In this document: in pieces, positions 5,125 to 36,185 of the stretch
Numbering within the stretch: position 1 is the stretch's first letter
Layout of the letters: each line of letters starts with the position of its first letter
From: an uncultured Coriobacteriaceae bacterium
Lineage (GTDB): Bacteria > Actinomycetota > Coriobacteriia > Coriobacteriales > UMGS124
NCBI GenBank assembly: GCA_902783515.1
Contig: CACZRK010000170.1
Span: 1-36,527 of the forward strand
Direction: 5' to 3'
DNA: 36,527 bases
The notes under the pieces: generated by a model
What the model was told of the DNA's origin: nothing
Databases searched by the model: none
What the model saw: only the letters and a program-made list of their open reading frames with translations
Made by a program: the position numbers and the translations under genes

Positions 5125-5182
5125 GTTGGCAAATTTTCTTGATCGTTTGGTCTTCAGACGTGAACCCAACAACTCTGGTCAA

Positions 5183-9479: not shown

Positions 9480-9599
9480 TCGTCGCTCCCTTGGATCCAG
9501 TCGCATTGCCCTCTCATGGTTACATCTTCGTAGTTCGTCTCGACAGTGGCAATGCTTCCAGCTGTGTCGGCTGCAGTATGGCTGAGCCGCGGCGTGAGA

Positions 9600-9624
9600 G
9601 GCTTTACCCGTTTCGGGTAAAGCC
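9600..9624. promoter_or_regulatory. Perfect 25-nt palindrome in the divergent LuxR/reductase control region (candidate operator)
   Basis: GGCTTTACCCG-TTT-CGGGTAAAGCC. I checked all 11 arm positions base by base. Confidence 0.45.
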
Positions 9625-9792
9625 CGCAAGATCGAATTGAATTACCTGAGACAGGTGTATCGCGTTCGACTGGTTTCTCTCCACGATGAGCATGTCGAGC
9701 CTGCGCACGAGCGGCATGCCGCGTTGCTCGTGGCGGACTTTGAGCGGCATCCGTAATTTGAATGCACGTCCAGGGACAAGGAGGGCTTTTCC

Positions 9793-11742: not shown

Positions 11743-11834
11743 GTGCGTCGTGTTCCTGCTGGTGGGCAAATGCACGCTATGCCCGAGGTTCGAGGAGGCT
11801 GCGCGGAGCCCCCATGTGGAGAGGATGGTATGAA

Positions 11835-15189: not shown

Positions 15190-15424
15190 TGCAGCCCCGT
15201 TTCGATAGCGTAGGTGCAAGTCGTGGGCGCAGACGCGGATGACGCATGGATGGCGAGATGCTCTGAAGCGTCGGGCGACCACGCGTCATCAGGCGTGCAC
15301 CCAAATGGTCTGGTTGCGCGCGCCGCCGCTCGGGACGACGTGCGGTCGACAACGACCCATAACGGCGTCTCGATTATAGGGTGACGGGATGGCGTCGGGA
15401 ATATTCGAGTGAATGGGGGATGAA

Positions 15425-19021: not shown

Positions 19022-19304
19022 GACCTGCCCCTTTCTACTCGTGGGTGCGCGGGGTACCTATGTGACACCTTGTCGCGGGTGCCGATACGCACTCCAGGCG
19101 TTCTTTGGACACCCGCGCGCGTCTGCCGTCCCCGCCGCACGCCCCGTGCGCGTTGGCCCCATGGTGGCCGCTCGGTTGCCTTCGTCCATCGTGCGCGGCG
19201 GCTATGTATATGCGATTTTGGCGTATCATCCGTGACGGCCGATGCGCGCTTCGCGAGCCCGGCATCGTCGGACGTCTTGAATGGTGGGACGGGAGGTCGC
19301 GCTG

Positions 19305-20855
19305 ATGACGTTGCTGCGGGCGAGGAGAGACGTCAAGATCGCGCGCCTCCCCCTGGCCTGCGCGGTCATGTCGCTCATGTGGGTGTGGCTGAACGTGTCG
19401 AGCCGCGGCGGCTTCTTTGGCGAGAGCTACGCGGAACAGGGGCAGGTGGCGCTCTATGCGTGTCGCCTCCTCTCGCTCGTGCTCGTCGCGGCCCTTTCCC
19501 GCTTCCTCTGGTCACGCCCGCGCACGCTGCTCGCCGTCAGTGGATCGCTGGTATGCGTGGGCGCGCTCGTGCACGCGGTTGCTCTGGCGACGCAGTCAAT
19601 GGCGGGAGACTCGCTCGCCTGGGGGATGGACGTCATCGGCGAGGCGCTCTGCGGTCTCGGCTACCTGCCATGTCTCTTCGCGGTCCTGCTCGGACTTGCA
19701 CGGACATCATGCCGCATGCGGGACGTTTCTGTCGCGGTACTGATCGCGATGGCGTGCAAGGAGCAGGTGCCGCCCCTGCTCTCTCTCCTGCCGGTCGCAA
19801 CGCATGTCTGGGTGCTCCTGTTCCTTCTGGTTGCACTTGTGGCCACCTTGGCGTGCTATGGGCGCGTCATGGGCGCGGGAAGGCAGGCGGCGTCTGCCGA
19901 CGTCCCGGGCGACGGGTGCGCCACGAGGCGCGCCACGCGACAGGTGCTGCTGCTTGGCTGCGTCGCATACCTCACGACCTACGTGTTCGGCATGGCGAGC
20001 GGCATCGGGCTGGCGGGATCGCCGATGTCCACGGCAACCCATGGCGTGATCCTCGTCCCGGCAGGTAAGATCATTGCCCTCGCGGTCCTCGTCTTGCTGT
20101 CCTGCGGCGCGATCGTGCACACGGCTGACATGCCCCGTGTCTGGCGCTTCGTTCCCGCATTCGTTATCCTTGCGCTCTCCACGACGCTCTCACCGCTCAT
20201 CCTCGCCGTCGGCGCGAACCCGATTGCCGCCGACGCCGTCGCTGCCTGCCTCCAGGGTGTGTACGACTTCAGCCAAGTGCTCGTATGGGTGATCGTGGCG
20301 TCAGCCCTCAGGCTCGGTAACCCGATCGAGCTGGCGGTCGTTGCCGGCATGAACGCCTTCTACCATGTGCCCGCCGTGCTTGTTGGTTCACGACTGCCGA
20401 ACCTTTCCGAGGGGCTTGCCTCGAGTCTGATCGTCAGCTACGGTCTGCTCGTGATCATCATTGCCGTGCTGCTGCCGGCGATGGAAGCCCTACGCGCGGG
20501 GAGGGGTCACGGCGAGTGCGGGTCGTCGGGGGGTGACCAGGGCGAGACATCCGGCTCGGATCTGCTCAGGCGAGCTCTTGCGTGCAGGTGCCGCGTGGTT
20601 GCCGATCGTTTCGGCCTCACGAAACGCGAGACTGAGGTCTTCACACTACTGTGTCAGGGACTTTCCCGGGAGGCCGTCTGCGAGGAGCTCGGCGTGTCCA
20701 TCGGCACGGTCAAGGCGCACATCGCCCACATCTACGAGAAGACGGGCATCAACACGAGGGAGGGGCTCAGCGCGCTTGTGTTTGAAGACGGACGCGACGA
20801 CGAGGTCGGAGCCGAGGGTGAAGATCGCCGCTCGCTGCCGCCCATTCGGATCTGA
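19305..20855 (+). CDS. Polytopic-membrane LuxR-family regulator
   Basis: Track ORF 19281-20855. ATG 19305 has GGGAGG 8 nt upstream. The C-terminus reads LTKRETEVFTLLCQGLSREAVCEELGVSIGTVKAHIAHIYEKTGINTREGLS. Confidence 0.85.
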   Translation: MTLLRARRDVKIARLPLACAVMSLMWVWLNVSSRGGFFGESYAEQGQVALYACRLLSLVLVAALSRFLWSRPRTLLAVSGSLVCVGALVHAVALATQSMAGDSLAWGMDVIGEALCGLGYLPCLFAVLLGLARTSCRMRDVSVAVLIAMACKEQVPPLLSLLPVATHVWVLLFLLVALVATLACYGRVMGAGRQAASADVPGDGCATRRATRQVLLLGCVAYLTTYVFGMASGIGLAGSPMSTATHGVILVPAGKIIALAVLVLLSCGAIVHTADMPRVWRFVPAFVILALSTTLSPLILAVGANPIAADAVAACLQGVYDFSQVLVWVIVASALRLGNPIELAVVAGMNAFYHVPAVLVGSRLPNLSEGLASSLIVSYGLLVIIIAVLLPAMEALRAGRGHGECGSSGGDQGETSGSDLLRRALACRCRVVADRFGLTKRETEVFTLLCQGLSREAVCEELGVSIGTVKAHIAHIYEKTGINTREGLSALVFEDGRDDEVGAEGEDRRSLPPIRI

Positions 20856-21090: not shown

Positions 21091-22719
21091 CTATCCGCGG
21101 GCGATGATGTCCTCGGCGCTCATGTAGCCGGAGGTGTATACGAGGCACACGCCGACGCCGACGCCGCAGTACGTGTCGTTGTACAGGTTGGAGCCTGCCT
21201 CGACGCCGATGGCGTATAGCCCCGGGATCCTCGCGCCGTTGGCGTTCAGCACGCCGTAGCCCAGGTCAACGCTTACGCCACCCCAGCTCGTGAGGTTGTT
21301 CTCGTAGGTGTACACGGCGTAGTAGGGGCCGGCGCCGTAGGGGACTAGATACGCGGGGTCCTTGCCGCACAGGGTGTCCTTGCCGGCGGCGCAGCAGGCG
21401 TCATAGTCGGCGAGGGTCTTGGCGAAGATCTCGGGATCCATGCCGGCGGCCTGTGCGAGCTCTTCGGGCGTCTCGCCCTTGAAGCCGGTGCCGTCCTGCG
21501 CCATCTGGTCGAACACGGCGGTCGCGTTCTCCCAAGGCGTCTCAAGGTCGTACTCGGGCGCGTACTTGGGCGGGATGGTCAGCTTGGCGGTGGCGCCGAG
21601 CGCCGCGATGCCGCCCTGTTCGAGCAGGGCGAGCTGGTCGGCCGAGACGATTGTCCAGTGGAAGTCGCCTTGGAACAGCGAGGAGTTCGCAGCCGCGTCC
21701 GCGCTGCCGAGGATGCCCTCGTTGCGGAAGCGACGGCCGTCCTTCGTCACGTTCATGAAGCCGGACATGTAGGTCGTGAGGAACGGGTACTTCGCGGGGA
21801 AGTCATCGAACGTCTCGGTGAGCTTGTCGGTGGCGGTGGTGAACGTCTGATGCGGCATCTGCATACCGTAGTTGAGCGGCTTGGCGCCGCCGGCCTCCCA
21901 GCACATCCTCAGCCCCTCGCCGACGTTCTGGGGCAGGCCCCCGCACACGGGCCTGCGGCCGAAGGCCTCAAAGACCATGTCCTCATTGGCGGCATAGCCT
22001 CCCGTCGCGATGACGACGGCCCTGGCCGCGTTGAACTGCCTTGCGGCGCCAGTCTCATCCAGCGCGATCACGCCCGTGACCCTGCCGTCGTCGTTCTGCA
22101 CGAGTGCCTTTGCGGTCATCGAGAGGCGCACGTCTATGCCTGAGCCGTCCACCATGGCCTGGTAGAGGGCCGGGCGGTCCTTGTAGGGGACGTCGATCTT
22201 CCAGTTCTTGACCCCCATGGAGTTGAAGTCCTTGACGAACGCCCAGCCCCACGACTGCTCGAGCCAGGTGAACGCCGTCGCGGAGTTGTTGAGCAGGCTG
22301 GAGATGGCCGTCGCGTCAACGCGCCAGTGGCAGTCGTTCACCCAGTCACTTACCTGTGCCGCGATGTCGTCGTCGGCCGTGCGGACCATCGCCGAGAAGA
22401 CCGAGTTGGAGCAGCCACCCAGCACCGTTGACTTCTCGAGCAGGGCGACCCGCAGACCGTTCTCCGCGCAGTGCGTCGCGCACGACATGCCGGCCGCGCC
22501 GGCGCCCACCACCACGACGTCAAAGGCCTCGGTCGACTCCGGCGCGTAGGAGCTCGGATCTGCCTCGTCGTTGGCTGCTGCCGCATTTGTGGGCGCGTCG
22601 GCCTTGGCAGACTCCATGGCCCCCGCCGCGGTGGCGCCCCCTGCCGCCGCCACGCTCACTGCGGCCGCGGTCGCCACGAAGTTCCTGCGCGTGACATTTC
22701 CCATCCCGTTGATTGCCAT
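21091..22719 (-). CDS. Tat-signal FAD-dependent reductase
   Basis: GGGAGGA lies 5 nt upstream of the ATG. MAINGMGNVTRRNFVATAAAVSVAAAGGATAAGA is the Tat signal and FDVVVVGAGAAGMSCATHCAENGLRVALLEK is the FAD fold. Confidence 0.9.
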   Translation of the reverse strand: MAINGMGNVTRRNFVATAAAVSVAAAGGATAAGAMESAKADAPTNAAAANDEADPSSYAPESTEAFDVVVVGAGAAGMSCATHCAENGLRVALLEKSTVLGGCSNSVFSAMVRTADDDIAAQVSDWVNDCHWRVDATAISSLLNNSATAFTWLEQSWGWAFVKDFNSMGVKNWKIDVPYKDRPALYQAMVDGSGIDVRLSMTAKALVQNDDGRVTGVIALDETGAARQFNAARAVVIATGGYAANEDMVFEAFGRRPVCGGLPQNVGEGLRMCWEAGGAKPLNYGMQMPHQTFTTATDKLTETFDDFPAKYPFLTTYMSGFMNVTKDGRRFRNEGILGSADAAANSSLFQGDFHWTIVSADQLALLEQGGIAALGATAKLTIPPKYAPEYDLETPWENATAVFDQMAQDGTGFKGETPEELAQAAGMDPEIFAKTLADYDACCAAGKDTLCGKDPAYLVPYGAGPYYAVYTYENNLTSWGGVSVDLGYGVLNANGARIPGLYAIGVEAGSNLYNDTYCGVGVGVCLVYTSGYMSAEDIIARG

Positions 22720-22932: not shown

Positions 22933-24483
22933 TCAGAGTCTCTCCAGGAGCTCGAGAAGCTCCTGGCGCGAGTGGACTTCGAGCTTGCGGTAGAGGTTGC
23001 GCAGGTGCGTGCGCACGGTGTTCTCAGTGACGCAGAGGCTCTCGGCGATGCCGCGCTGCGTGTACCCGCGTGCGAGCAGGCGCAGGACGTCGCCCTCGCG
23101 GTCCGTGAGCGCGAACCGAGCGATGGCGGCGTCGCAGCTTGCGCCGTACAGATCGTCGAGAAGCGCGGCGCCCGAAGCGGTGCGGCGACGGTCGGGTCCC
23201 CGCACAGCGTCGCAGTCGGCCCCCGCTCGCGCGTCGCGCGCGCGACGCTGCACGGCGACGTAAGCCATGGCCAGCACGTACACGATCGCAAGCGCGCAGA
23301 CGAGGACGTTCGCCTGGCTCGCCGCCCCGCCGCGATAGATGAGGTAGGCGATGAGCGTGGAGAGCGACACGGAGAGGAACGTCCCGGCGCCGAGGATCCC
23401 GAGGGCCACGCCCCGGCTGACGCCGTGGTCCTCGGCGCAGGTCGCACTGAGCACGATCAGCGTCGCGAGGATGACGAAGAACGCCGCGTGAAGCACTGCC
23501 GCGGCGATCACGATCAGCGAGGGACTGACTAGTGGCAGCAGCGCAGCGATGGTCACGATCACGGGGAAAGCCACGCGGTACATCCCGATCGCGTCAAGCC
23601 GACGCCCTGTCGTGCGCTGTCGACGTCCCGAGAGCCACCAGGCAAGTGCGACCATCGCGAACGCCACGCCGAGCACGGCGCCGAGCCGATTGATGAAGTC
23701 GGTGTCGCGAATGCTCGCGAGTGCCGTGGTCCGCACGAAGGAGAAGGCAAACACCGAGGCCATGACGCAGATGAGCTCGGTGGACAGGCGCGACAGGGCA
23801 TCGCCGAGCGTCGCGGGTTGGTCGCCGTCGCCATGCGCGCCAGGACCGTCGCCCACGCTCGCCTCGCCACCGGTGCCGTCGGCCGTCGCGCGGGTGCCCG
23901 CCACAGCCCCGTCGACCCGCATGCCATGGGTCATGGAGGCGTACAGGCATCCCGAGACCGCGACGCACGCGGCGAGGAACAGGATGCGGCCGTCGATGGC
24001 AAGTGCGTAGGCGATGGCGTACAGCAGGGCGTACGCGACCAGCGTACCCACGACGAGCCGTGTCGCGCCTGCCTGGTCCTGGCCGGCCTCGAGCAGGGCG
24101 AGGCCCCAGAGCCAGAGCGCGACGCCGCACGCCGCGCCGAGCGCGAGGAGGACGGCCGTGGCGATCGCCGCGCCCAAGCTGGTGGCGTACGCGTCGCTGC
24201 CAGGCAGACGGCTCAGCGCGAGCGTCGTCACGACGATGACGAGCGAGCCCATTGCCTGCGCGCCGACGCGGGCCCGCGTGCTCGCGCCGTGCCGTCCCTC
24301 GGCCCACGCGCACAGCAGCAGAGCGGCTCCGGACGACAGGGCCTGGGGGGCCGTCTTCACGAGAAGCAGGCCGGGCAGCCGTAGGCCCAGTAGCGCCCCC
24401 CAGGGAAGGCCGCCCCAGTTGGTCAGGCTGATGGCGAGCAGGGAGACGGCCGTGCCGAACGCGATGCACATGCGATTGCGCAC
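22933..24483 (-). CDS. Polytopic-membrane LuxR-family regulator
   Basis: Track ORF 22933-24540 (GTG start). The start is uncertain: GTG at comp. 24481-24483 has GGAGG 4 nt upstream, and ATG 24471 is also possible. The C-terminus reads LTDREGDVLRLLARGYTQRGIAESLCVTENTVRTHLRNLYRKLEVHSRQELL. Confidence 0.85.
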   Translation of the reverse strand: MRNRMCIAFGTAVSLLAISLTNWGGLPWGALLGLRLPGLLLVKTAPQALSSGAALLLCAWAEGRHGASTRARVGAQAMGSLVIVVTTLALSRLPGSDAYATSLGAAIATAVLLALGAACGVALWLWGLALLEAGQDQAGATRLVVGTLVAYALLYAIAYALAIDGRILFLAACVAVSGCLYASMTHGMRVDGAVAGTRATADGTGGEASVGDGPGAHGDGDQPATLGDALSRLSTELICVMASVFAFSFVRTTALASIRDTDFINRLGAVLGVAFAMVALAWWLSGRRQRTTGRRLDAIGMYRVAFPVIVTIAALLPLVSPSLIVIAAAVLHAAFFVILATLIVLSATCAEDHGVSRGVALGILGAGTFLSVSLSTLIAYLIYRGGAASQANVLVCALAIVYVLAMAYVAVQRRARDARAGADCDAVRGPDRRRTASGAALLDDLYGASCDAAIARFALTDREGDVLRLLARGYTQRGIAESLCVTENTVRTHLRNLYRKLEVHSRQELLELLERL

Positions 24484-24676
24484 AAGACCTCCGCCCCCCG
24501 TCGCCGCGTGCGCTTCCAGGCGCTTACCGCACGGTACCACATTCCTTCACGTCGGCATTTCGCATTGATTGTGCGAGTGCGCGGCGTCGGCCTCCGGCGT
24601 ATGGTCAGGGCGATGCGCCTCGCAGGACAGGGGGTCTGCGACGGGGCGTGTGGCCACGATGACAAGGGGGATACGC

Positions 24677-26503
24677 ATGAGCACAGAAATGACGGGTATG
24701 GGGGAGTCGATCGACCGTCGGGACTTCATCGGTCGCGCGGCCGCCGTGGGTGCCGCAGCGGCCGCGGCGGGCGTGGCGGGGGGCGCTGCGGGCGTCGCCC
24801 AGGCCGCGCAGCAGAAGACGTCGGCGCAGGCGGACGCATCGACAGAGGATGCGCCGGCGCCCCGGGATATCATGCCGGGCGACCTGAGCGCGCTGCCGAC
24901 GCCGCCGGCCATCACAGCCGATCAGATCAAGGTGACCAAGGACTGCGACGTGCTTGTCATCGGCGCGGGCATCTCCGGCCTTGCCGCCGCGCGCTCCGCG
25001 GTCGAGGCCGGCGCCAAGGTCATTGTCATGGAGAAGAACGCCCAGATCGAGATCCACGGTTTCGGTTGCGGTGTCGTGAACAGCTCGCTGGCGACTGACC
25101 ACGGTATTGTGGTCGACCCCGTCGCCGTGATGAACGAGTACGAGCGCCGCAGCTATGGCCGCGTGAATATGCAGCTCGTGAGCCTGTGGGCGAACCACTC
25201 CGGTGAGGTCTTTGACTGGTACAGCTCGGTTGCCGACGACTTCGTCAAAGAGAATATGACGCTCAACTTCTACCCGCCGTTCGAGGAGCACGACACGACC
25301 AAGGACCAGTTCCAAACGTTCCTTGGCTGCATCGACTTCAAGGAGGACCCGCTCAAGCAGTTCGATGTGGCCCCTTGGACGAAGCTTGGCCAGCTGAACC
25401 AGGCGAAGGCCGAGGAGGAGGGCGTCGAGTTCGTTTTCTCGACGGCTGCCCAGGAGCTCACGACCGATGCCACTGGACGGGTGACCGGTGCGATCGGCAT
25501 GGACGAGAATGGGGACTACCTGCAGGTCAACGCGAGCAAGGGCGTCGTCCTCACGACAGGCGGCTTCTGCCAGTTTGGCGCGGGCGCCGAGGTCATGTGC
25601 AAGGTGTTCACGCCCAACATGTACAAGAACTACCGGCTCATCAAGGGCGAGGAACCGAGCTGGCAGGAGATGTTCACGGTGAACCCCGGCCCCATCCAGG
25701 GGGCCACGGGCGATGGGCAGCTCATGGCCATCTGGGTCGGCGGCCAGATGGACCCGTTCGCGGACGCCGGCATGGGGTCGTGCGAGTCCGCGATTGGTGG
25801 CACGGTGGCTCTCACCGTGAACAAGAACGGCGAGCGGTTCCACAACGAGGACATCGGCATCTGGGAGAAGCACGACCAGGTCATGCGTCAGCCCGGGCAG
25901 ATTTGTTACGACATCATCGACGCGAACTGGCGCGACCGCCTGCCGTACCAGGCAACCGGCCACCGCAACTTTGATTATCACGAGCACCAGGTCGCGAAGG
26001 GCTTTGACGGCATCACATACGTGAACACGTTCAATGACGAGTTCCTGTCCGCGGTCGGCAACCCCGAGGGCATCACGCCGTCGCTCGACCGTCATGCCGG
26101 AACCGTCTACGCAGCGGACACGCTGGAGGAGCTCGCCGAGATTATCGGCGTTCCCACGGACGCGTTTCTGGCGACGGTTGCCCGCTACAACGAGTTGGCC
26201 GCCCAGGGGCATGATGAGGACTTCGGCTGCGACCCGCAGAAGCTCTTCCCGATTGATACCCCGCCGTTCATCGCGTGCAGCGCCACCGCCTCGCCGAACT
26301 TCGCGGCGTACGCAGGCCTTGTCACGAACGGCAGGCTGGAGGTCGTGAACAAGGACGGCCAGCCCATCGGGGGCTTGTGGGCAGCCGGCAATTGCTGCGG
26401 CGGAAAGTTCGGACCGAGCTACTTTACGCCGATCCCCGGCATGAACCACGGCAACGGGATCACGCACGGCTATTACGCTGGCCTCTACGCTGCGCAGGCG
26501 TAG
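24677..26503 (+). CDS. Tat-signal FAD-dependent reductase
   Basis: Track ORF 24569-26503 (TTG start). I moved the start to ATG 24677 (GGGGGA 6 nt upstream). MSTEMTGMGESIDRRDFIGRAAAVGAAAAAAGVAGGAAGVAQA is the Tat signal and CDVLVIGAGISGLAAARSAVEAGAKVIVMEK is the FAD fold. Confidence 0.9.
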   Translation: MSTEMTGMGESIDRRDFIGRAAAVGAAAAAAGVAGGAAGVAQAAQQKTSAQADASTEDAPAPRDIMPGDLSALPTPPAITADQIKVTKDCDVLVIGAGISGLAAARSAVEAGAKVIVMEKNAQIEIHGFGCGVVNSSLATDHGIVVDPVAVMNEYERRSYGRVNMQLVSLWANHSGEVFDWYSSVADDFVKENMTLNFYPPFEEHDTTKDQFQTFLGCIDFKEDPLKQFDVAPWTKLGQLNQAKAEEEGVEFVFSTAAQELTTDATGRVTGAIGMDENGDYLQVNASKGVVLTTGGFCQFGAGAEVMCKVFTPNMYKNYRLIKGEEPSWQEMFTVNPGPIQGATGDGQLMAIWVGGQMDPFADAGMGSCESAIGGTVALTVNKNGERFHNEDIGIWEKHDQVMRQPGQICYDIIDANWRDRLPYQATGHRNFDYHEHQVAKGFDGITYVNTFNDEFLSAVGNPEGITPSLDRHAGTVYAADTLEELAEIIGVPTDAFLATVARYNELAAQGHDEDFGCDPQKLFPIDTPPFIACSATASPNFAAYAGLVTNGRLEVVNKDGQPIGGLWAAGNCCGGKFGPSYFTPIPGMNHGNGITHGYYAGLYAAQA

Positions 26504-26600: not shown

Positions 26601-28064
26601 CTACCCCCGCGGGAACCACGCTCGCCGCAGCGCGGCGACGCCGGGCGCGACGTCCTTGACGGCGATCGACGAGAACCCCAGCAGCAGCCTGCCGCGCGGG
26701 GCGGCGCGGGTGAACCAGTACGGTTCGGCGGCGTAGACCCGCGCGCCCTGCGCCAACGCGGACGCCAGCAGCTCTGGGTAGCCCATGCCGTTGCAGACGG
26801 TCGCGAACAGGTGCATCCCCGCATTGGCGCCTCGCAGCTCGAGCTGGGTCCCGTCAAACTCCCGCAGGAGGGCGTCGAGCAGCGCGTCGTGGCCGTGCCG
26901 TAGCCTCGTGCCCAGCCTGCGCACGTGTCGCTCGTACTCGCCGCCGTCTATCAGGCGGGCAAGCAGCTCCTGCTCGATGACCGACACCTCCGTCATGGCC
27001 AGTGAGAACGCGTCATAGTAGCGGCTCATGAGGTCGGGCGGGATCACGAGATAGGCGACGCGCAATGCCGGCGAGAGGGTCTTTGAGAAGTTGCCGAGAT
27101 AGATGACGCGCCGCCCGCCATCAAGCGACTGGAGCGAAGGGACCGGATCGACGTCGTAGCGGTACTCGCTGCACGAGTCATCCTCCAGGACCCACGCGTT
27201 GTCTTCGTGTGCCCATGCGAGCAGCCCCGCACGCACGTCAGCGCGCATCACCTCGCCAGTCGGGAACTGATGCGAGGGCGTGGCGAAGAGCAGACTGGCC
27301 CCCGATGATCGCACGCCGTCAAGGAAGGCTTGGGCGCCCTGGTCGCTGGGGACGCCGACGACGCGGAAGCCCATGCCACGGCTTACGTCAGGGAACACCC
27401 GATAGCCTGGTTCCTCGCCCGCGACGACGCCATCTCTTGGGGCAAAGAGGCGCAACACGCGCGCTATTGCCGCGGCCGTTCCGGGCATGATCACCACCTG
27501 CGTCGGATCGCAGGTGATCCCACGAGCGCGCCTCAGGTAGGCGCACAGGGATCGCTGCAGGTGGCTGGGCCGCGACTCGTCAAGGTAGCGAGCGGCCAGG
27601 CCCGGCTCGTCTCGCATGACGTCCCGCGCGGCTGACAGCCAGACGTCGGAGGGGAACGATCCCTCGGGGAGCTGCGCGAAAGCAAAATCGTACGTGACGC
27701 GAGCGTCGGAGCCGAACTGCGAGAAAAACGCGCCTCGCCCCGCGGGCTCCTTCGGTGGCGCCGTCGGCGCGCTCGTTGCCGTCGTCTGCAGGAACCTTGC
27801 GTCCAGGGGGCGCACGACGAATCCCGATTGCGGCACGTTCTCAACGTAGCCCTCCACCTCAAGCTGCAAGTACGCTCGCTCGACCGTCGGCCGTGAGACG
27901 CCCGCGTCCTGCGCGAGCTGCCGCAGTGAGGGGAGCCTATCTCCGCCGACGAGCGCGCCGGACGAGACGAAAGCGCAGATCTCACGGTATATCTGCTGGT
28001 AGACGGGTACGTCGCTTGCCCTGTCAACGTGTACGTCGAGCCTTCTGCCGCCCACGTTCCTCAT
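26601..28064 (-). CDS. MocR-type regulator (GntR winged HTH fused to a PLP-dependent aminotransferase-like domain)
   Basis: The N-terminus VYQQIYREICAFVSSGALVGGDRLPSLRQLAQDAGVSRPTVERAYLQLEVEGYV is a GntR-type HTH. The ~380-aa C-terminal domain contains YLGNFSKTLSPALRVAYLV, the PLP-lysine context of class-I aminotransferases. Confidence 0.9.
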   Translation of the reverse strand: MRNVGGRRLDVHVDRASDVPVYQQIYREICAFVSSGALVGGDRLPSLRQLAQDAGVSRPTVERAYLQLEVEGYVENVPQSGFVVRPLDARFLQTTATSAPTAPPKEPAGRGAFFSQFGSDARVTYDFAFAQLPEGSFPSDVWLSAARDVMRDEPGLAARYLDESRPSHLQRSLCAYLRRARGITCDPTQVVIMPGTAAAIARVLRLFAPRDGVVAGEEPGYRVFPDVSRGMGFRVVGVPSDQGAQAFLDGVRSSGASLLFATPSHQFPTGEVMRADVRAGLLAWAHEDNAWVLEDDSCSEYRYDVDPVPSLQSLDGGRRVIYLGNFSKTLSPALRVAYLVIPPDLMSRYYDAFSLAMTEVSVIEQELLARLIDGGEYERHVRRLGTRLRHGHDALLDALLREFDGTQLELRGANAGMHLFATVCNGMGYPELLASALAQGARVYAAEPYWFTRAAPRGRLLLGFSSIAVKDVAPGVAALRRAWFPRG

Positions 28065-28076
28065 ACGGGGGACTCC

Positions 28077-28119
28077 ATTCTGGCCAGATTAGAATAAGGA
28101 ATTCTGGCTATCAGAGAAT
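28077..28119. promoter_or_regulatory. Two tandem 19-bp units ATTCTGGC-N6-AGAAT (candidate MocR operator) in the MocR/cytochrome divergent spacer
   Basis: ATTCTGGCCAGATTAGAAT (28077-28095) and ATTCTGGCTATCAGAGAAT (28101-28119), with a 24-bp period. The first unit contains the perfect palindrome TCTGGCCAGA (28079-28088). Confidence 0.5.
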
Positions 28120-28258
28120 GACCATATACCTCATACGATGGACTGGCAACGATCGTCGGCCACATCGGCGCGCAGACGGCGCGCGGAGCGGCGGGCGGTC
28201 GGGATGGAAGGGGGAGATCGTGGGGAAGAGGGGTACGGACGTGGGCTCTCCGGGGCCC

Positions 28259-29722
28259 ATGAGGGCGAGGCGTCTGGCCGTGGCCGCGACGGTGGCGGCC
28301 ATGGTCGCCGTTGTCGCGTGCCTCGGCGCGCCGAGGGGTGCCGCCGTCGCCGATCGCGTGGCGTCCGCAGCTGAGGGAGACGGCGAGACGGCCCACGCGG
28401 TCGCGATGAGCTCCCTGGACGCGGGGGGCTCCTCCGCCGACGTCGACGCCGCGGCCGACGGGCAGGGCACGACCGACGCGGGCGACGACGACCTCGCGGC
28501 GGCCCGCGAGGCGTATGCCAAGGCGACGCCGCAGGCGAGCGGCACGTGCTACGAGTGTCACGCGAACGAGGACCTGCTGCGAGCGTCGCTGTCCGACAAG
28601 GACGATGACGCCTCCAAATACCTTGTCGACGAGAGCTTCGTCACAAGCACGCACGGCATGCTCGGGTGCACGTACTGTCACGGGGGACATTCGGACGAGA
28701 CTGACGCACGGGCGGCGATGGCAGGCATGAATGCGACGCCGACCGCCGACGGCGGCCAGGCGGTGTGCGGTCGGTGCCACCAAGGGGTGGTCGACACCTT
28801 CAAGACGAGCCTGCACTTCAACACGACCGGCATCAAAAACGCCTGGGACGCACGACTGGCGCCCTCAGAAGAGGCGCTGGGCACTGACCTGTCAGCGCAG
28901 TACTACCATCACGACGGGTATGACGGCGCCTGCATCGATTGCCACGCGACATGTGGCGAATGCCACGTGCGCAGCGCCAAGGACGCCATCGACCCCGACG
29001 CCGGGCTCACGAGGGGGCACGACTTCGTCGATCTGACCGACAACGCCGACATCACGTACACGTGTCTCTCATGCCATGCCGGGTCGATCGCGGGCTGCTT
29101 CACCGACTATGACGTGCACGGGCCCTCCGGGGCGAACATGAACTGCATGGACTGCCACAACATAGGGGAGATTCATGGCGACGGCACGAGCTATCAGACG
29201 ATGTCGCATTCCGGGGCCATCACGACCGAATGTACCGACTGCCATGACGCCTCCTCGCTTTCGGGAGAATGGCATTCCGACACGCACCTTGCCAAAAACG
29301 AGTGCTGGGCGTGCCACACGAGCACCTACCGCACATGCACCTCGTGCCATGGATGGGCTGCCGAAACGCGAGGGGACGTGCCGATCGAGATGAGCGAGCA
29401 GTGCTTCCTTGGCTATGACGCGGCTGATGGCAAGATCACGACGCTCGCAAAGGCGCCGGTGGACGAGGGGATGCTTGGCGACGTCTCTGACCTCGCGTTG
29501 GATGACGACCTTCTCAACGCTGGTAGCACCTGGTATCCCGCGTTCACGCACGGTGTGATCGTTCCGCAGCCAGACCAAGACTTTTGCGATCGCTGCCACG
29601 GTGCGGGAACCGCGTTGCTTGACGAGGATGACCTCCAGTATCCGGATTGGGAGAAAGGCCAGGTTGTGGGGAGTCTGCCTGAGGTATGCGCGAGTGACTA
29701 TGGCGGGCAGGCCGCGTCCTGA
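28259..29722 (+). CDS. Undecahaem c-type cytochrome with an N-terminal signal/anchor (lipobox-like VVAC)
   Basis: Track ORF 27755-29722. I moved the start to ATG 28259; an in-frame GTG at 28220 is an alternative. There are eleven CxxCH motifs: CYECH, CTYCH, CGRCH, CIDCH, CGECH, CLSCH, CMDCH, CTDCH, CWACH, CTSCH and CDRCH. The N-terminus reads MRARRLAVAATVAAMVAVVACLGAP. Confidence 0.9.
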   Translation: MRARRLAVAATVAAMVAVVACLGAPRGAAVADRVASAAEGDGETAHAVAMSSLDAGGSSADVDAAADGQGTTDAGDDDLAAAREAYAKATPQASGTCYECHANEDLLRASLSDKDDDASKYLVDESFVTSTHGMLGCTYCHGGHSDETDARAAMAGMNATPTADGGQAVCGRCHQGVVDTFKTSLHFNTTGIKNAWDARLAPSEEALGTDLSAQYYHHDGYDGACIDCHATCGECHVRSAKDAIDPDAGLTRGHDFVDLTDNADITYTCLSCHAGSIAGCFTDYDVHGPSGANMNCMDCHNIGEIHGDGTSYQTMSHSGAITTECTDCHDASSLSGEWHSDTHLAKNECWACHTSTYRTCTSCHGWAAETRGDVPIEMSEQCFLGYDAADGKITTLAKAPVDEGMLGDVSDLALDDDLLNAGSTWYPAFTHGVIVPQPDQDFCDRCHGAGTALLDEDDLQYPDWEKGQVVGSLPEVCASDYGGQAAS

Positions 29723-30028
29723 TTGCATTTGGTTGCGCATGGCAGCAGTTGATAGCAGACCCGATAGCAGCTGACGCGATGGGCGCTTGCGTGCGACGGA
29801 TGACGCGTTGCCCGTCGCAAGGCGCAGATTCTCGAGAAGACATGCATGCCAGGGGGTCCGACGTGGGGTGAGCATACCCACAGTTGGGCCACTGGCATGC
29901 GCGGCGCCCGCTTGTCGCCGTTTGCCGTGTCGGATGCACGTGACGCGTGGCCGTTCCCGCTGACGTTGGCGTGGCCGCTCCACGGTAAGCGGCCGGATTC
30001 CGCCCTTGATAGACCTATGAGAAATAGC

Positions 30029-30047
30029 GATACCATGCTATGGTATC
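30029..30047. promoter_or_regulatory. Palindromic candidate operator of the toxin-antitoxin operon
   Basis: GATACCAT-GCT-ATGGTATC has 8-bp perfect arms. It ends 29 nt upstream of the antitoxin ATG and is followed by TATCAT (30048-30053). Confidence 0.55.
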
Positions 30048-30075
30048 TATCATACAACCGAAAGGAGGGTTGCCC

Positions 30076-30471
30076 ATGCCTGCTGCCTCAATGGCGGGTG
30101 GTGCGCCGAAGAGCGTGCAGATGAACGTCCGGCTTGATCGCGAGGACAAGCGGCGCGGTGACGCGGCGCTTGCGGCCATGGGCTTCACGCCGACCCAGGC
30201 GGTGAAGTCGCTGTGGGCGCTTGCGGCCGGTGACGCGAAGGATCTTGACTTCGTGAGCGAGCTGCTGCGTCGCGGCCGAGACCGGCAGCTCGCGACGGCG
30301 AGCGACGGGACGACGGGCGAGGCCGACGACGTGCTCGCCCGTGGGTGGGCGCTGTACGAGGATGCCTGCAAGGAGGTCGGCGTCAGCGGGGGCGCGGATC
30401 ACGGGCGCGCCGACGACGAGCTTCTCGAGCAGGCGCTGCTCGACAGGTACGGCGAGGGGCGTGCGTCATGA
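30076..30471 (+). CDS. RelB/DinJ-family (ribbon-helix-helix) antitoxin
   Basis: Track ORF 30040-30471. ATG 30076 has AGGAGGG 5 nt upstream. VQMNVRLDREDKRRGDAALAAMGFTPTQAVKSLWALAA fits the DinJ/RelB N-terminal pattern. The stop overlaps the next start (ATGA at 30468-30471). Confidence 0.7.
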   Translation: MPAASMAGGAPKSVQMNVRLDREDKRRGDAALAAMGFTPTQAVKSLWALAAGDAKDLDFVSELLRRGRDRQLATASDGTTGEADDVLARGWALYEDACKEVGVSGGADHGRADDELLEQALLDRYGEGRAS

Positions 30472-30962
30472 GCGGGAATCAGGAGTGCATCGTCATCGAC
30501 ACGAACGTCTGGCTTGACAACTACATCCCGCATCGCGCGGGGCATGCGGACGCGCAGCGGCTTCTCGCGTGCGCGCGTTCCTGCGACGTCCAGCTCCTGT
30601 ACGCCGTGGAGAGCGTCAAGGACGTCTTCTACGTGATCGCCGCCGACTTCAAGGCGACGGTGAGGGCACAGGCCGGTCACGTCGGGGACGCCGAGGAGGC
30701 GGTCGCCCAGCAGCTCGCATGGTCGTGCGTCGAGAACATGCGGACGCTTGCCAACGCGATCGGCGCGGACGAGTCAGACGTCTGGCTTGCCGCGAAGTAC
30801 CGCTCGCTGCACGGCGACCTTGAGGACAACCTGGTGCTTGCGGCGACGAAGCGCGCCGGCGCGGACTACCTCGTCACGGGTGACCGCGCCTTCATCGAGA
30901 AGGCCACCGTGCCCGCGCTGACGCCGCGTGACTGGCTGGTGCTGCACGAGGCCGAGCGCTAG
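30468..30962 (+). CDS. PIN-domain (VapC-like) toxin
   Basis: Track ORF 30345-30962. I moved the start to ATG 30468, which overlaps the antitoxin stop by 4 nt. The sequence has IVIDTNVWLD, YAVESVKDV, LEDNLVLAAT and DYLVTGD, which give the four acidic PIN positions in the expected order. Confidence 0.8.
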   Translation: MSGNQECIVIDTNVWLDNYIPHRAGHADAQRLLACARSCDVQLLYAVESVKDVFYVIAADFKATVRAQAGHVGDAEEAVAQQLAWSCVENMRTLANAIGADESDVWLAAKYRSLHGDLEDNLVLAATKRAGADYLVTGDRAFIEKATVPALTPRDWLVLHEAER

Positions 30963-31623: not shown

Positions 31624-31977
31624 CACGGGTGGAAACTGTCCGGCCAGCTTGACGCCTACAACGCTGCGTGCGACGCAGGCGAGGATGCGGACTTCGGCAA
31701 GGATGCGAAGTATCTCGTCAAGATGGACAAGGCGCCGTACTACGCCGTGCTCGCATACTCGTTCATCAGCGCGATCTCGGGCGGGATCAAGACGGATGCG
31801 GATTTCGCGGTCACCCGCGCGGATGGCTCGGAGACCCCCGGTCTCTATGCGGTGGGCATTGCGAGCAGCCGCGAGTTCTGGGGGGACTACTATCCCGGCG
31901 CCCTCGCGATCACGCTCTGCACGCACGGTGGGTTCGTTGCCGGGCGGAACGCGGCGGCGTATGCGCTGGGGAAGTAG
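31624..31977 (+). pseudogene. C-terminal ~117-codon remnant of a flavoprotein reductase
   Basis: The frame opens right after TGA (31621-31623) and reads HGWKLSGQLDAYNAACDAGEDADFGKDAKYLVKMDKAPYYAVLAYSFISAISGGIKTDADFAVTRADGSETPGLYAVGIASSREFWGDYYPGALAITLCTHGGFVAGRNAAAYALGK. This matches the C-terminal motifs of the intact paralogs (YNxxCxxGxDxDFGK, PYYA, PGLYA.G). No Tat signal or FAD fold lies upstream. Confidence 0.8.
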
Positions 31978-32115: not shown

Positions 32116-33705
32116 CTAGCCTTCGTCTCGCCGTTCCCGGTCGATAAGCTCGATGAGCTCCTGCCTGCTGTGCACGCCGAGTTTGACGTAGACGTTCTTG
32201 CAGTGGAACCGCACGGTGTTGGGCGAGACGCCCATGTACTCCGCAGCTGCGGGGATGCTCCGCCCGCTCATGAGCATGCTCACGACCTCGCGCTCACGTT
32301 CCGTAAGACCATGCGCCTGCGCGATTGGTCCAAGGGAGCTCTGTCGGGCCGTGTTGCGCGACTCGGTGTCATCAGGAGACGCCAGCTCGGATTCCCACGA
32401 GTAGACTCGTCTCGTGTCCTGCGCAGTCTGGAAGCGGTCGGAGAACACGTATGCGGCGAACATGACTAGCACGCTCGCGAGTGAGCTTGGGAGCGTGGCG
32501 AAGGCGGTCCCCTCAAGGTCCACGCCGCTGTTGGCCAGCGCATTGAAGGGAATTGCCGGCAGATAGCGCATAGAGTAGATGATCCCGAACGACAGCGCGT
32601 ACATGGCGACGGGCGAGATCAGATAGTGCCGCGAGACTTGGTTACACGCGAGGATCCCCATCATTGACGCGACGGAGAAGATCGTGTAGAGGGCAAACGA
32701 GAGCGCATAGCCATAGCCGACGCCGAGAAAGGGGAGCAGCGCGCAGGCCAGCCCAATGCCGGGTGCGGCGACCCTGTAGAAAATGCCCATGTCCAGGTGG
32801 TAGCGATTGCGCTCGAACAGCGCCCAGGTGATTCCCGAGCTTGCGACCAAGGCAAGGCTGTTGAGGTTGCCGACCAGCTCCTCCGAGGCCGGGGTCGCCA
32901 TCGAGAGGCCGAGCCGCACGATCTGCATCACGAACCCTATTGCCCCGATGGTGAGGCAGGGCGCGAGCAGGGCGAGGATGCCCTTGCGCAGATTCCCTCG
33001 GTGCTCTGGGCTGTCGCTTGGGAAACGGACAGTCCCGCCATAGAACGTGACCACGCGCGTCGTGGAGGGGCTTGACGGCTGCCGGGCGTCGTCGCCGGTT
33101 GCCGCCGGGATGAGACGAAACGCGCAAAGCGCGAGAAGCGCGCTTGTGCCAGGGGCAATGACCAGTGCGGCTATTGTCATCACTACCCAGGATGACAGCC
33201 ATGCGAGGAGGAAGTACAGCGCCCCTCCGACGGCGGTGCCGCCGATAATACAACGAGCGTCCATCGGCGTGTTCTGCGAGCAGAGCACGAAGACCCAGAG
33301 GATGAAATTGCCCGCAATGCCGCCACCAACAAGCGTTCCGCCGATGGTGGTATAGAGAAGGCTCGCCCATGATGGCGCCGCAAAGGCCTTTGGGAGACAA
33401 GTTGCCACCGCAAATCCCACGATGAAGGAAAGTGAGGGCGCCCAGTATATCGGGGGGCGCCGGAGGACGGCGTGCATGCGGGGCGATCCCGTTGACGTGA
33501 GCAGAAATACCAAGAGAAAGCAGAGACAGAAGACGAGGTTCTTCGCGATGGTGAACGGCGCCGCGATTTCGCTCGACACGAATGAGGGAGAGGCGCCAGG
33601 CCAGCCAGCGATGGAGACGAGGGCGATGTCCATCCCATAGCCCGCGATCGCCCACGGCAGAAGACGTGTATTGCCTGCTGCCTGGTCCGTCGTCTCGTGA
33701 GGCAT
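32116..33705 (-). CDS. Polytopic-membrane LuxR-family regulator
   Basis: Track ORF 32116-33789. I prefer ATG at comp. 33703-33705 (AAGGGA 9 nt upstream); ATG 33714 is an alternative. The C-terminus reads LTEREREVVSMLMSGRSIPAAAEYMGVSPNTVRFHCKNVYVKLGVHSRQELI. Confidence 0.85.
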   Translation of the reverse strand: MPHETTDQAAGNTRLLPWAIAGYGMDIALVSIAGWPGASPSFVSSEIAAPFTIAKNLVFCLCFLLVFLLTSTGSPRMHAVLRRPPIYWAPSLSFIVGFAVATCLPKAFAAPSWASLLYTTIGGTLVGGGIAGNFILWVFVLCSQNTPMDARCIIGGTAVGGALYFLLAWLSSWVVMTIAALVIAPGTSALLALCAFRLIPAATGDDARQPSSPSTTRVVTFYGGTVRFPSDSPEHRGNLRKGILALLAPCLTIGAIGFVMQIVRLGLSMATPASEELVGNLNSLALVASSGITWALFERNRYHLDMGIFYRVAAPGIGLACALLPFLGVGYGYALSFALYTIFSVASMMGILACNQVSRHYLISPVAMYALSFGIIYSMRYLPAIPFNALANSGVDLEGTAFATLPSSLASVLVMFAAYVFSDRFQTAQDTRRVYSWESELASPDDTESRNTARQSSLGPIAQAHGLTEREREVVSMLMSGRSIPAAAEYMGVSPNTVRFHCKNVYVKLGVHSRQELIELIDRERRDEG

Positions 33706-34034
33706 TAATGTCATTCCCTTCGCCGTGTGCTCTGAAGAGTGTAGTCGAGCGTATCCACTCATGCATCGTACGCTCGTGGCGAGGAGCAAGTTTTGGTATC
33801 GAAGGACCGACTCGAATCTAGGCGGCAGGGCAACGACAATGGCCAGTGGTGACGTCCAATGCCGCAGCGTGAAGGCGGCCGAAGCCTGGCGGGCGGGGGT
33901 TTATATCTACGCGATGTTCCGGCGGACACGAGCGCGCATAGAGCTCTCGAAAAGGGCGACGCAGAAAGGGGTGTCGGCTCTTCGTCCTTGTCATTGGCGC
34001 CCAAGGGCCGCGCGGAACGTCGTCGCAAACAATC

Positions 34035-34082: not shown

Positions 34083-36185
34083 CTATGCCTTCACTGCCTG
34101 TTCGAGAGCACGTTTGACCGCCATCTTGATGGCGTTTGACGTGACAGTTGCGCCCGCAACGCCGTCAAGCTTGTAACTCTGCGCTTCCTCGACCTGCTTC
34201 GCGTAGGTGCCGTCCTCGATCGCCTCGTAGCCGCCGATGCCCTTCGTCTCGTTGTTCGGTGAGATGTCGGACACCGCGATGTGGCCGTCCTTGACTTGGA
34301 TCGTGACGTCGATCTCGCCAACGATGCCGTAACCGTAGCCGGTGTACGTCCCATCGGCAAATGCGGCGCCGTCAAGATCCTCGTCGCTCTGCTTTGCCTT
34401 TGCGCTGTCGTCCTGATGACGCTGGATGCCCAGCGACGCGGGCGGCACGTAGTCGGGGTCGGCTGCGATGCCTGACCAGCCACCGGCGAGGTACTTGCCC
34501 GTGAGGTAGCCGAAGGTGATGCAGTTCATGCCGAGGTTGTGCCCCTCAACCAGGAAGTTGTAGCTGTTCGCGAACGCGTCGCCCACCATGGTGCCGATGT
34601 TGAACAGTCCCTCAATGGGGGTGTCGTCATCCTCGCACACCTGCATGTTGATGTTGGTGCGCAGGCCACCGAGGATCGTAAGGAACTTCGGAGCGTCCTT
34701 GCGATAGCCGTAGAATGGTGCGGTACGCACGGGAACGAGCAGCTCGGGACGCTTGTGGAAGTCCTCGTCAACGCCGGCATCGCACAGCTCGTTGTAGCGC
34801 TCGATGGAAGCGATCATGGCGTCGGCGTCGACGCCCATCTGGGAGGCGAGGTCCTCCAGCGTGTCCGCCTTGAACATGCTGCCCGCCTCGACCTTTGCAT
34901 CCCAGGACGCGAGCACCTCGTCCGCCGTCATGTCGCCCTCGCCGTAGACGTTCTTCCAGTTGTGCCACGGCATGTGATGCGAGGGATACTCGGCATCGAA
35001 CACGGCATTGATGGGGCCTTCGTGCTTGATCACGTACGGCAGGTGGCCGACGCCCATGTCCTCGCAGCAGAACCGCTTGCCTGCATCGTTGACCATGATG
35101 GTGTCGGGCGCGTTCCACGGCTGCGAGCATGGCGCGGCGAACGTGGCTGCCATCGCGGCGTTGGGGATCGTGCGCTGCCACGCCGCACCGACCCACAGGC
35201 CCATCTGCTGGCCCCGGCCCTTGTACAGTCCGCCGTAGACCTTGCCGAGCGTGTCGGGCGTCTGCGCCTCGTCCCAGTTGGTGACCCAATCGACGGCCTC
35301 GGGGGCGTAGCGCTCCATCATCTCGCGATTGCCCGAGAAGTCGCCTGTCGCAAGCACGATGCCCGTGGTTCCGACGAACTTGACGTAGTTTCCGTCGGCG
35401 TCGCTGCCGATCACTGCGTCCACGCGTCCGGTCGTTCCATTGGGGACGCCGCCGCGCACCAGCTGCTCAGCATGCGTGTTGAAGTAGAATGTGACGCCTT
35501 GCTCCTCGCAGAGCTTGCGCAGCGCGAAGACGAGAGACGGCTGACCGTCGGCGACGACGGGGAAGTCGTCGTTGTTCCAGCAGTGCGACTCCTCCGGGCC
35601 GAAGAGAGGATAGGTGCGCATGTCATCGGGCCAGACGTTGCTCTGCTCGATGGTGATGCGGATCCCCTCAACCTGGGAGGTGCGGTCAATGAGCCAGTTG
35701 ATGGACTCTTCGGAGTTGTTGTACCACTTGTGCCACTTTGCGACGTCGATGTTGAACGACGCCTGCGCCATCTGAGCCAGTAGGAATCGTTCGTCGATGC
35801 GCGGCAGGCCGTACTCATTCATGATCGTGGAGTACACGACGGCGTTAGATCCGCCGCGGGCGACGACGTTGGGACTTTGGGCGAACACCACGACCTTGAG
35901 CCCACGCTCCGCCGCCGAGAGCGCGCAGCACAGACCGGCGGTGCCGGCACCGACGATGACAACGTCGGCGGTGATCGTCTCGGTGATGTCGGCGTCGGCG
36001 ATCGGGTCCGGCGGCGTCATGAACGACGGGGTGGCATCGTGTGCCGCGGAATCCTTCGCTGCGGATGGCGACTCCGCTGCGAGTGCCGTGCTCGTGCCTG
36101 CCGAGACGATCGTCGCGCCGGCGGCCGTCATCGCGGCGCCCGTGATGAATGACCGGCGGTCCATCTGTGCTCCTGCGTGAGTCAT
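34083..36185 (-). CDS. Tat-signal FAD-dependent reductase with a C-terminal FMN_bind-like domain (700 aa)
   Basis: AGGAGG lies 5 nt upstream of the ATG. MTHAGAQMDRRSFITGAAMTAAGATIVSAGTSTALA is the Tat signal and ADVVIVGAGTAGLCCALSAAERGLKVVVF is the FAD fold. The tail GIVGEIDVTIQVKDGHIAVSDISPNNETKGIGG...LDGVAGATVTSNAIKMAV looks like an FMN_bind module. Confidence 0.9.
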   Translation of the reverse strand: MTHAGAQMDRRSFITGAAMTAAGATIVSAGTSTALAAESPSAAKDSAAHDATPSFMTPPDPIADADITETITADVVIVGAGTAGLCCALSAAERGLKVVVFAQSPNVVARGGSNAVVYSTIMNEYGLPRIDERFLLAQMAQASFNIDVAKWHKWYNNSEESINWLIDRTSQVEGIRITIEQSNVWPDDMRTYPLFGPEESHCWNNDDFPVVADGQPSLVFALRKLCEEQGVTFYFNTHAEQLVRGGVPNGTTGRVDAVIGSDADGNYVKFVGTTGIVLATGDFSGNREMMERYAPEAVDWVTNWDEAQTPDTLGKVYGGLYKGRGQQMGLWVGAAWQRTIPNAAMAATFAAPCSQPWNAPDTIMVNDAGKRFCCEDMGVGHLPYVIKHEGPINAVFDAEYPSHHMPWHNWKNVYGEGDMTADEVLASWDAKVEAGSMFKADTLEDLASQMGVDADAMIASIERYNELCDAGVDEDFHKRPELLVPVRTAPFYGYRKDAPKFLTILGGLRTNINMQVCEDDDTPIEGLFNIGTMVGDAFANSYNFLVEGHNLGMNCITFGYLTGKYLAGGWSGIAADPDYVPPASLGIQRHQDDSAKAKQSDEDLDGAAFADGTYTGYGYGIVGEIDVTIQVKDGHIAVSDISPNNETKGIGGYEAIEDGTYAKQVEEAQSYKLDGVAGATVTSNAIKMAVKRALEQAVKA

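Follow-up and report, generated by a model that had tools for sequence, protein, structure and literature searches.

A MocR-type regulator gene divergent from an 11-haem cytochrome gene in an uncultured Coriobacteriaceae bacterium, with phased direct repeats as its predicted operator

The 36,527-nt stretch of DNA analysed here (referred to as the window; contig CACZRK010000170.1 from an uncultured Coriobacteriaceae bacterium) contains a gene for a MocR-type regulator (referred to as mocR) that is divergent from a gene for an 11-haem c-type cytochrome, and the spacer between both genes carries two direct-repeat boxes. The synteny of both genes, the boxes, their phasing and their fixed distance to a –10-like hexamer are conserved across loci, and the recognition helix of the regulator covaries with the box. 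A regulatory link between mocR and the cytochrome gene is well supported by these comparisons, and the pair probably forms a divergon in the style of GabR and PdxR, i.e., one that combines autorepression with ligand-modulated activation of the cytochrome gene. The features concerned are the following:

26601–28064, minus strand: mocR-type regulator gene (487 aa), encoding a GntR winged helix-turn-helix (wHTH), a linker and an aminotransferase-like domain, with full-length alignment to 7PQ9 and 4N0B
27813–28001, minus strand: GntR winged-helix DNA-binding domain (PF00392; residues 22–84), with recognition helix SRPTVERAY
27081–27083, minus strand: codon of K328, by alignment the equivalent of Lys312 of GabR, which binds pyridoxal 5′-phosphate (PLP)
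28077–28084, plus strand: box 1, ATTCTGGC, 8-bp core (within a unit previously drawn to 28095), 12 nt from the mocR ATG and at about –69 to –62 of the predicted cytochrome promoter
28101–28108, plus strand: box 2, ATTCTGGC, 8-bp core (within a unit previously drawn to 28119), at about –45 to –38 of the predicted cytochrome promoter
28134–28139, plus strand: TACGAT as predicted –10 hexamer of the cytochrome promoter, at precisely 33 nt from the start of box 2
28121–28149, minus strand: promoter-like site facing mocR (–35 TTGCCA, 28149–28144; –10 TATGGT, 28126–28121), from a consensus scan only
28150–28201, plus strand: predicted hairpin in the cytochrome leader (–37 kcal/mol, z –3.2)
28220–29722, plus strand: 11-haem c-type cytochrome gene (GTG 28220 preferred; alternatively ATG 28259), with an N-terminal signal or anchor

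Among the loci fetched for comparison (designated by L numbers), mocR orthologues with 45–52% identity were divergent from cytochrome orthologues with 59–73% identity in six further contexts, i.e., L003-6 (49% for MocR and 59% for the cytochrome), L129 (50% and 73%), L134 (49% and 65%), L135 (45% and 65%), L142 (52% and 66%), and L138-140 (48% for MocR, with only a C-terminal remnant of the cytochrome). A 98% relative (L001) carries the divergent pair as well. The neighbourhood in L003-6 is wholly different from that in the window, featuring YitT, an isochorismatase, a uracil-DNA glycosylase (UDG), an SNF transporter and a rhomboid protease. A preliminary description of the window had asked whether the synteny is conserved in related genomes; the recurrence of the pair in six unrelated contexts means that it is not unique to this strain, and sequence comparison argues that the adjacency is not a chance juxtaposition.

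The same preliminary description had reported two tandem 19-bp units with a 24-bp period in the spacer, and two exact ATTCTGGC-N6-AGAAT units with that period were indeed found, i.e., ATTCTGGCCAGATTAGAAT (28077–28095) and ATTCTGGCTATCAGAGAAT (28101–28119). It had also placed them in an A/T-rich patch of a GC-rich spacer, in agreement with a GC content of 0.41 across the boxes (28075–28140) vs. 0.74 in the remainder (28141–28258). The conserved part of these units is their 8-bp 5′ part: read toward the cytochrome gene, the MocR-linked spacers contain [A/T]TTCTG[G/A]C twice, as a direct repeat 23–25 bp apart, with L135 being exceptional. With ATTCTGGC and its spacing in the window taken as a prior hypothesis, phased pairs were scored against mononucleotide shuffles (2000 for each spacer). 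The phased pair of the window spacer was reached by 0/2000 shuffles, as was that of L129 (one summed mismatch) and that of L003 (two summed mismatches), while 1/2000 and 3/2000 shuffles reached the pairs of L138 (two summed mismatches) and L134 (three summed mismatches), respectively; L142 carries the pair ATTCTGGC/TTTCTGGG. When both strands of the 1.2 Mb of fetched loci were searched, phased pairs with at most two mismatches were confined to MocR-linked spacers, apart from one stray. Upstream of the cytochrome orthologues that lack a neighbouring mocR (L059, L131, L136, L008, L007, and L009), the best pairs had 5–7 mismatches. Since these MocR-less orthologues are thus devoid of the boxes, the presence of the boxes appears to follow that of the regulator gene, as it should for an operator of this regulator.

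The full 19-bp unit and the palindrome within it were rejected as operator. The sequence TCTGGCCAGA at 28079–28088 is a perfect palindrome, as had been claimed for the window, but is absent beyond the 98%-identical L001, and the AGAAT arm is likewise not conserved past L001, with no more than partial traces of it at box 2 in L129 and L135. Within the 47-bp box region, the window and L001 differ by three substitutions, and 3/3 of these are in the N6 parts.

The arrangement fits what has been reported for this family of regulators. Typically, a MocR regulator gene is divergent from a target under positive control, and autorepression is common in the family; the operators are direct repeats spaced by two or three helical turns, and motifs of two or three direct repeats make up 27% of the reconstructed MocR regulons (PMC5320631). 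The 8-bp direct repeats 23–25 bp apart in the divergent spacers conform to this description as predicted sites, and the previous remark that MocR boxes are separated by about two or more helical turns is consistent with the same source.

The spacers also share a fixed promoter geometry. Specifically, with the spacers aligned on box 2, each has a TANNNT hexamer at precisely 33 nt from the start of that box, facing the cytochrome gene, i.e., TACGAT in the window, TAGACT in L129, TACAAT in L003, TAGATT in L134, L138, and L142, and TAAGAT in L135 (for which the register of box 2 was chosen by eye). TANNNT covers 1.3% of the spacer positions, and the chance of five independent loci agreeing is below 1e-7 when about 100 possible offsets are allowed for. 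No recognisable –35 was found in the cytochrome promoter (the window has TCAGAG at that position), and the box layout is that of a predicted activator site replacing the –35. Facing the other way, the candidate mocR promoter (TTGCCA-17-TATGGT) would have its transcript start inside the boxes, and further mocR-facing –10 candidates fall between the boxes; at either placement of the mocR promoter, autorepression is therefore predicted.

Two MocR paralogues with 45% identity are divergent from operons for molybdenum-bis(pyranopterin guanine dinucleotide) (Mo-bisPGD) oxidoreductases, one in L137 (a Slackia-like genome; mocR gene at 4001–5467, spacer at 3840–4000) and one in L143 (Adlercreutzia sp. 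ZJ242; mocR gene at 5001–6467, spacer at 4892–5000). In both spacers, the boxes are again phased by 24 bp and the hexamer is again at +33 (TAAAAT and TACCCT, respectively), but the box reads (A/C)(A/T)TCTGTCCG, and the recognition helix of both paralogues is SHTTVEQAY vs. (S/A)R..VE(R/K)AY in the cytochrome-linked regulators. Because helix and box thus change together while the architecture stays the same, the boxes are likely read by the regulator, and this covariation is the strongest indirect evidence to that effect. Among the 68 closest homologues, SH(T/I)TVEQAY is the majority helix type (with genomic context checked for two of its members) and about eight have the cytochrome-linked type. 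As a side observation, the Mo-bisPGD operons encode a catalytic subunit, a 4Fe-4S subunit and a TorD-like chaperone, with NrfD in L143 only.

The family assignment of the regulator rests on alignments along its entire length. The N-terminal part (residues 22–84) matches the GntR family PF00392 in Pfam with 54.8 bits (cut-off 27), and the MocR-type models of NCBIfam align with the protein end to end, with the PdxR model scoring 375.2 bits (cut-off 320) and the GabR and MocR models scoring 287 and 274 bits, under their cut-offs of 600 and 650, respectively. The best match among solved structures is PdxR of B. clausii (7PQ9; E 2.5e-68, residues 14–483), and GabR of B. subtilis (4N0B) aligns with E 9.4e-63 over residues 12–483 at about 30% identity. 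By these structures and NCBIfam models, the C-terminal part is assigned a fold-type-I aminotransferase-like domain, bearing out the original proposal of a 487-aa MocR regulator with a GntR HTH and an aminotransferase-like domain. The homologues of the regulator comprise the one 98% relative (L001) and then proteins with at most 52% identity, those with a name stemming mostly from Eggerthellaceae.

Part of the PLP-binding pocket is retained in this alignment. K328, located within GNFSKTLSPALRVAY, aligns with the PLP lysine K312 of GabR, so that the PLP-lysine context that had been read from the sequence stands, and D295, S327 and R335 correspond to the conserved D279, S311 and R319 of GabR. Tyr281 of GabR is replaced by S297 in the window, and by Ser or Ala throughout the Eggerthellaceae MocR clade, while Arg207 and Arg430 of GabR are replaced by Val and Pro, respectively, at positions that are both variable among the orthologues. 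In GabR, we take Arg207 and Arg430 to bind the carboxylate of the ligand γ-aminobutyric acid (GABA), and since both are replaced, the ligand of the regulator would not be GABA-like. The regulator may bind PLP and may respond to a ligand, for which PLP itself, a carboxylate-free amine and a small molecule that reacts with PLP are all possible; the amine-bearing metabolite that had been put forward as the signal is a guess from family membership.

On the other side of the spacer, the open reading frame (ORF) from 28259 to 29722 (plus strand) contains 11 CxxCH motifs, 11/11 of which are conserved in the family alignment, and matches Cytochrome_C7 in Pfam with 36.2 bits (cut-off 24.8). The N-terminus has a basic and hydrophobic segment (present in all orthologues) followed by an Ala/Ser/Glu-rich linker, and the product is predicted to be an exported, membrane-tethered protein, with export judged by inspection. 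Its role is presumably in the anaerobic electron transfer of an Eggerthellaceae-like bacterium. Translation probably starts at the in-frame GTG 28220 rather than at ATG 28259, as the former codon is an ATG in L001, shares a GGGGGAG-N3 ribosome-binding context with the ATG of the orthologue in L129, and corresponds to the length of 500 aa given by gene callers. With this start, the divergence of both genes stands as previously described, but the spacer is 155 bp long rather than the 194 bp (28065–28258) reported before.

The cytochrome has about 31 homologues with 45–99% identity, which make up a small family; beyond these, identity drops to about 30%. The NapC/NirT family was not among its Pfam matches (E ≤ 0.001), and neither the NCBIfam models nor a profile search of PDB sequences hit this family, yielding only weak partial matches to NrfB-like and c3 models and to NrfB/NrfA haem motifs. 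An AlphaFold2 model based on a 24-sequence alignment was of poor confidence (mean predicted local distance difference test score (pLDDT) of 54, predicted template modelling score (pTM) of 0.45), and a Foldseek search of the PDB with this model returned nothing (best E 5.8), leaving the fold unassigned. Profile scans of genomes and metagenomes with the cytochrome mostly yielded distant (<45%) cytochromes of Chloroflexota and Desulfobulbaceae without a MocR, which say nothing on the module.

Within the family, the regulator gene is swapped around a constant cytochrome. Orthologues with 53–60% identity are preceded by TetR genes in L131–133, L136 and L059 (L131:4237–4782, L136:3877–4413, and L059:5008–5709), and the orthologue in L008 is preceded by a gene for an OmpR-type response regulator (L008:369–1100); in L007 and L009, the ORF immediately upstream had no Pfam match. 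Since members of the family thus adjoin different one-component regulators (MocR, TetR) or a response regulator, these cytochromes are suggested to be inducible rather than housekeeping.

In the proposed mechanism, a MocR dimer would bind the two [A/T]TTCTG[G/A]C direct repeats, 24 bp apart, via its two wHTH domains. With the boxes on or just downstream of the mocR promoter, the bound regulator would repress its own gene. Toward the cytochrome gene, box 2 (at about –45 to –38) and box 1 (at about –69 to –62) would precede a promoter that has a –10 and no recognisable –35, and a change in the state of the PLP-binding domain would most likely cause the regulator to activate transcription. GabR (ligand-activated) and PdxR (with PLP as anti-activator) are precedents for such a switch. 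We infer the binding of the boxes by the regulator, the sign of the regulation, and the geometry of the dimer.

Several observations weigh against this divergon. The regulator has no match to the Pfam family Aminotran_1_2 (PF00155), even at E ≤ 10, while PF00155 is present in most of its homologues; moreover, the Tyr that hydrogen-bonds PLP in GabR is a Ser, so that binding of PLP is not assured. In L135, there are boxes at offsets 0, +14, +25, and +36 (three or four in all), and no phased pair scores well, the best one being reached by 91/2000 shuffles. The spacers of L134, L138 and L142 are related and hence not fully independent, and both the box consensus and the +33 rule were found post hoc on the same loci. 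In several lineages, the cytochrome is truncated or frameshifted while mocR and the boxes are intact, and the regulator may have other targets. Finally, a site overlapping the –35 region could repress instead of activate.

This last point leads to the main rival explanation, which we deem possible although unlikely, namely that MocR represses the cytochrome gene, with binding over the –35 blocking RNA polymerase until the ligand causes release. Box 2 does cover the position of a would-be –35, and cytochrome orthologues elsewhere are preceded by genes of the TetR family, the members of which are usually repressors. MocR-type repression has a precedent in EnuR, which PMC8739950 gives as such. 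However, the window offers no recognisable –35 to occlude, a +33 phasing kept so strictly between distant loci is what one would sooner expect of an activator in contact with the polymerase, and the characterised divergent MocR regulators are mostly activators (PMC5320631).

It is considerably less probable that the boxes serve mocR autoregulation only, with the cytochrome gene being transcribed independently. Box 1 is located a mere 12 nt upstream of the mocR start codon, the boxes overlap the mocR promoter candidates, and they persist where the cytochrome is degraded. Nevertheless, box 1 and the mocR start codon are between 12 and 84 nt apart, depending on the locus, while the cytochrome-facing –10 is fixed at 33 nt, and both genes stay together in neighbourhoods that otherwise differ. 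More improbable still is an ordinary PdxR, i.e., a regulator of vitamin B6 biosynthesis that is next to the cytochrome gene by happenstance, as would fit the score above the cut-off of the NCBIfam PdxR equivalog, the B. clausii PdxR as closest solved relative, and the lack in both proteins of an arginine at the position of GabR Arg430. Neither pdxS/pdxT nor any other B6 gene is present among the ORFs annotated in the window, however, nor is a B6 gene among the called genes of those orthologous loci that have a gene table; the conserved partner is the cytochrome, and the clade has Ser or Ala in place of the PLP-contacting Tyr. Chance as the source of both the adjacency and the repeats is effectively refuted, since the statistic for the 19-bp unit is weak on its own (0.39 matches with at most two mismatches expected in the whole window, and at least two matches in 5/100 shuffles) but recurrent synteny, conserved boxes, phased pairs and the +33 hexamer all speak against it.

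Compared with known systems, the proposed divergon most resembles that of GabR from B. subtilis, which has the same domain architecture, a divergent gene pair, operators made of direct repeats on one face of the DNA, and a combination of autorepression and ligand-dependent activation of its target (PMC5320631). It differs in that Arg207, Arg430 and Tyr281 are not conserved, in the box, and in the target, which is gabTD for GabR and a multihaem cytochrome here; neither gabT nor gabD was found near the regulator gene. PdxR of B. clausii (7PQ9; NF052282) likewise has its gene in a divergent arrangement whose spacer contains repeated boxes, but no pdxST partner was found in the window annotation, the PLP-contacting Tyr is a Ser, and the operator here consists of two direct repeats, with no conserved inverted third box seen in the aligned spacers. 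MpaR of P. aeruginosa is a MocR-type regulator that is encoded beside the respiratory gene ccoN4 (for a terminal-oxidase subunit), activates it and is required for its expression, and needs its PLP-pocket residues to function (PMC10790758); unlike the present system, as compared by description, it has a palindromic motif, a proteobacterial host, a haem-copper oxidase subunit as target, and cyanide as signal.

Within Eggerthellaceae, DadR and its relatives similarly place one regulator beside one respiratory module (PMC9734109), but these membrane-spanning LuxR-type regulators are of an unrelated family and sense through transmembrane helices. The same study of reductase regulation in Coriobacteriia describes LuxR-type regulators and does not mention GntR or MocR. 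The Cgr1 and NapC/NirT cytochromes of Eggerthella lenta are, like the window cytochrome, membrane-anchored and of c-type, with a proposed electron feed to extracytoplasmic reductases (PMC5953540), whereas the window cytochrome has 11 haems in about 490 aa instead of being a tetra- or pentahaem protein, and its gene is monocistronic.

The preliminary description considered a MocR link to multihaem cytochromes to be new. As to cytochromes at large this was overstated, since cytochrome oxidases, class I cytochromes c and FdhA/BisC-type enzymes have been predicted as MocR targets before (PMC5320631) and MpaR provides a further link (PMC10790758). For multihaem cytochromes none was found: the regulon set of PMC5320631 contains neither a multihaem cytochrome nor Coriobacteriia, and a literature search returned no paper that meaningfully joins MocR with multihaem cytochromes or with Eggerthella/Eggerthellaceae. 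The class of mechanism is therefore known, while the target, the taxon, the operator and the variant of the pocket are new.

Drugs, dietary polyphenols and host amines are among the substrates of the respiratory reductases of gut Coriobacteriia, the regulation of which has so far been ascribed to membrane-spanning LuxR-type sensors (PMC9734109). The present locus is a testable example of another class of regulator in these medically relevant bacteria, with a predicted operator, a promoter geometry and a specificity pair of helix and box, and it marks a small, unnamed family of 11-haem cytochromes. Identifying the ligand would connect a metabolite with electron transfer in Coriobacteriia.

A wider reading, which we put forward as speculation and consider rather unlikely, is that the Tyr-to-Ser Eggerthellaceae MocR clade senses the substrates of anaerobic respiratory modules in the cytoplasm, as a second class of sensors beside the membrane LuxR ones. 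Its subclades would then switch on either a stand-alone 11-haem cytochrome or Mo-bisPGD reductases, with PLP acting as the chemical sensor of the compound that is respired or detoxified. That compound would be a carboxylate-free amine or, by analogy with cyanide for MpaR, a PLP-reactive nucleophile (such as hydroxylamine, sulfite, or cyanide), and the cytochrome itself could be the terminal reductase. As it stands, the locus involves no new principle; it would be of greater interest if its PLP domain did sense the respiratory substrate.

A number of further observations concern the spacer, the leader and the cytochrome gene. A 23-nt direct repeat (28052–28074 and 28122–28144; 78% identity, 70-bp spacing) brackets both boxes, with its first copy holding the mocR start codon and ribosome-binding site and its second copy holding the predicted cytochrome –10. 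The chance of such a repeat was roughly estimated at 0.03 per region of this size, and no comparable repeat was evident by eye in the orthologous spacers; a footprint of an insertion or duplication was considered for it but not adopted. The cytochrome leader is predicted to be about 77–144 nt long, vs. 33–34 nt without a hairpin for the Mo-linked paralogues. Leader hairpins were also predicted in L134, L135 and L142 (mononucleotide-shuffle z of –4.6, –3.7, and –2.4, respectively), with no obvious sequence similarity, and an Rfam scan of 27900–30200 gave nothing near the gathering score, and thus no known riboswitch in the leader. As for the damaged cytochromes, only residues from about 254/274 to 476 are left in L138 (3219–3830) and L139/L140 (3220–3896), L141 carries a 52-bp duplication in the cytochrome region when compared with L142 (near 2611–2665), and the cytochrome ORF is split in L004 (4339–5802); these could be cases of real pseudogenisation or assembly variants.

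The remainder of the window is an array of six LuxR-family and eight FAD_binding_2 reductase genes, mostly arranged as neighbouring pairs, with the following coordinates:

1265–3199, 7923–9629, 13612–15282, 19281–20855, 22933–24540, and 32116–33789: LuxR-family genes
5279–6883, 9793–11742, 11712–13538, 15413–17092, 17291–19021, 21091–22719, 24569–26503, and 34083–36185: FAD_binding_2 reductase genes
4225–5124: MerR gene, preceding the reductase gene at 5279–6883

The gene downstream of mocR, for a reductase, is convergent with it and has a LuxR gene of its own; past the cytochrome gene, a non-coding stretch of about 300 nt leads to a PIN toxin-antitoxin pair. Given these flanks, mocR and the cytochrome gene form a self-contained two-gene unit. 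The toxin-antitoxin-like pair (30040–30962) consists of an ORF of 143 aa and an overlapping ORF with a PIN_3 domain, and the same pair is present in L001, where it is located, in a different arrangement, beside an intact gene for a 671-aa FMN_bind/FAD_binding_2 protein. In the window, the similarity of an 84-aa ORF (31723–31977) to FAD_binding_2 is limited to the C-terminal end of that family (profile positions 355–405), and the ORF is probably the remnant of a reductase gene. Lastly, the non-coding gap before the MerR gene contains a 60-nt stretch (around 3858–3925) with a GC content of 18%, vs. 62.5% for the window.

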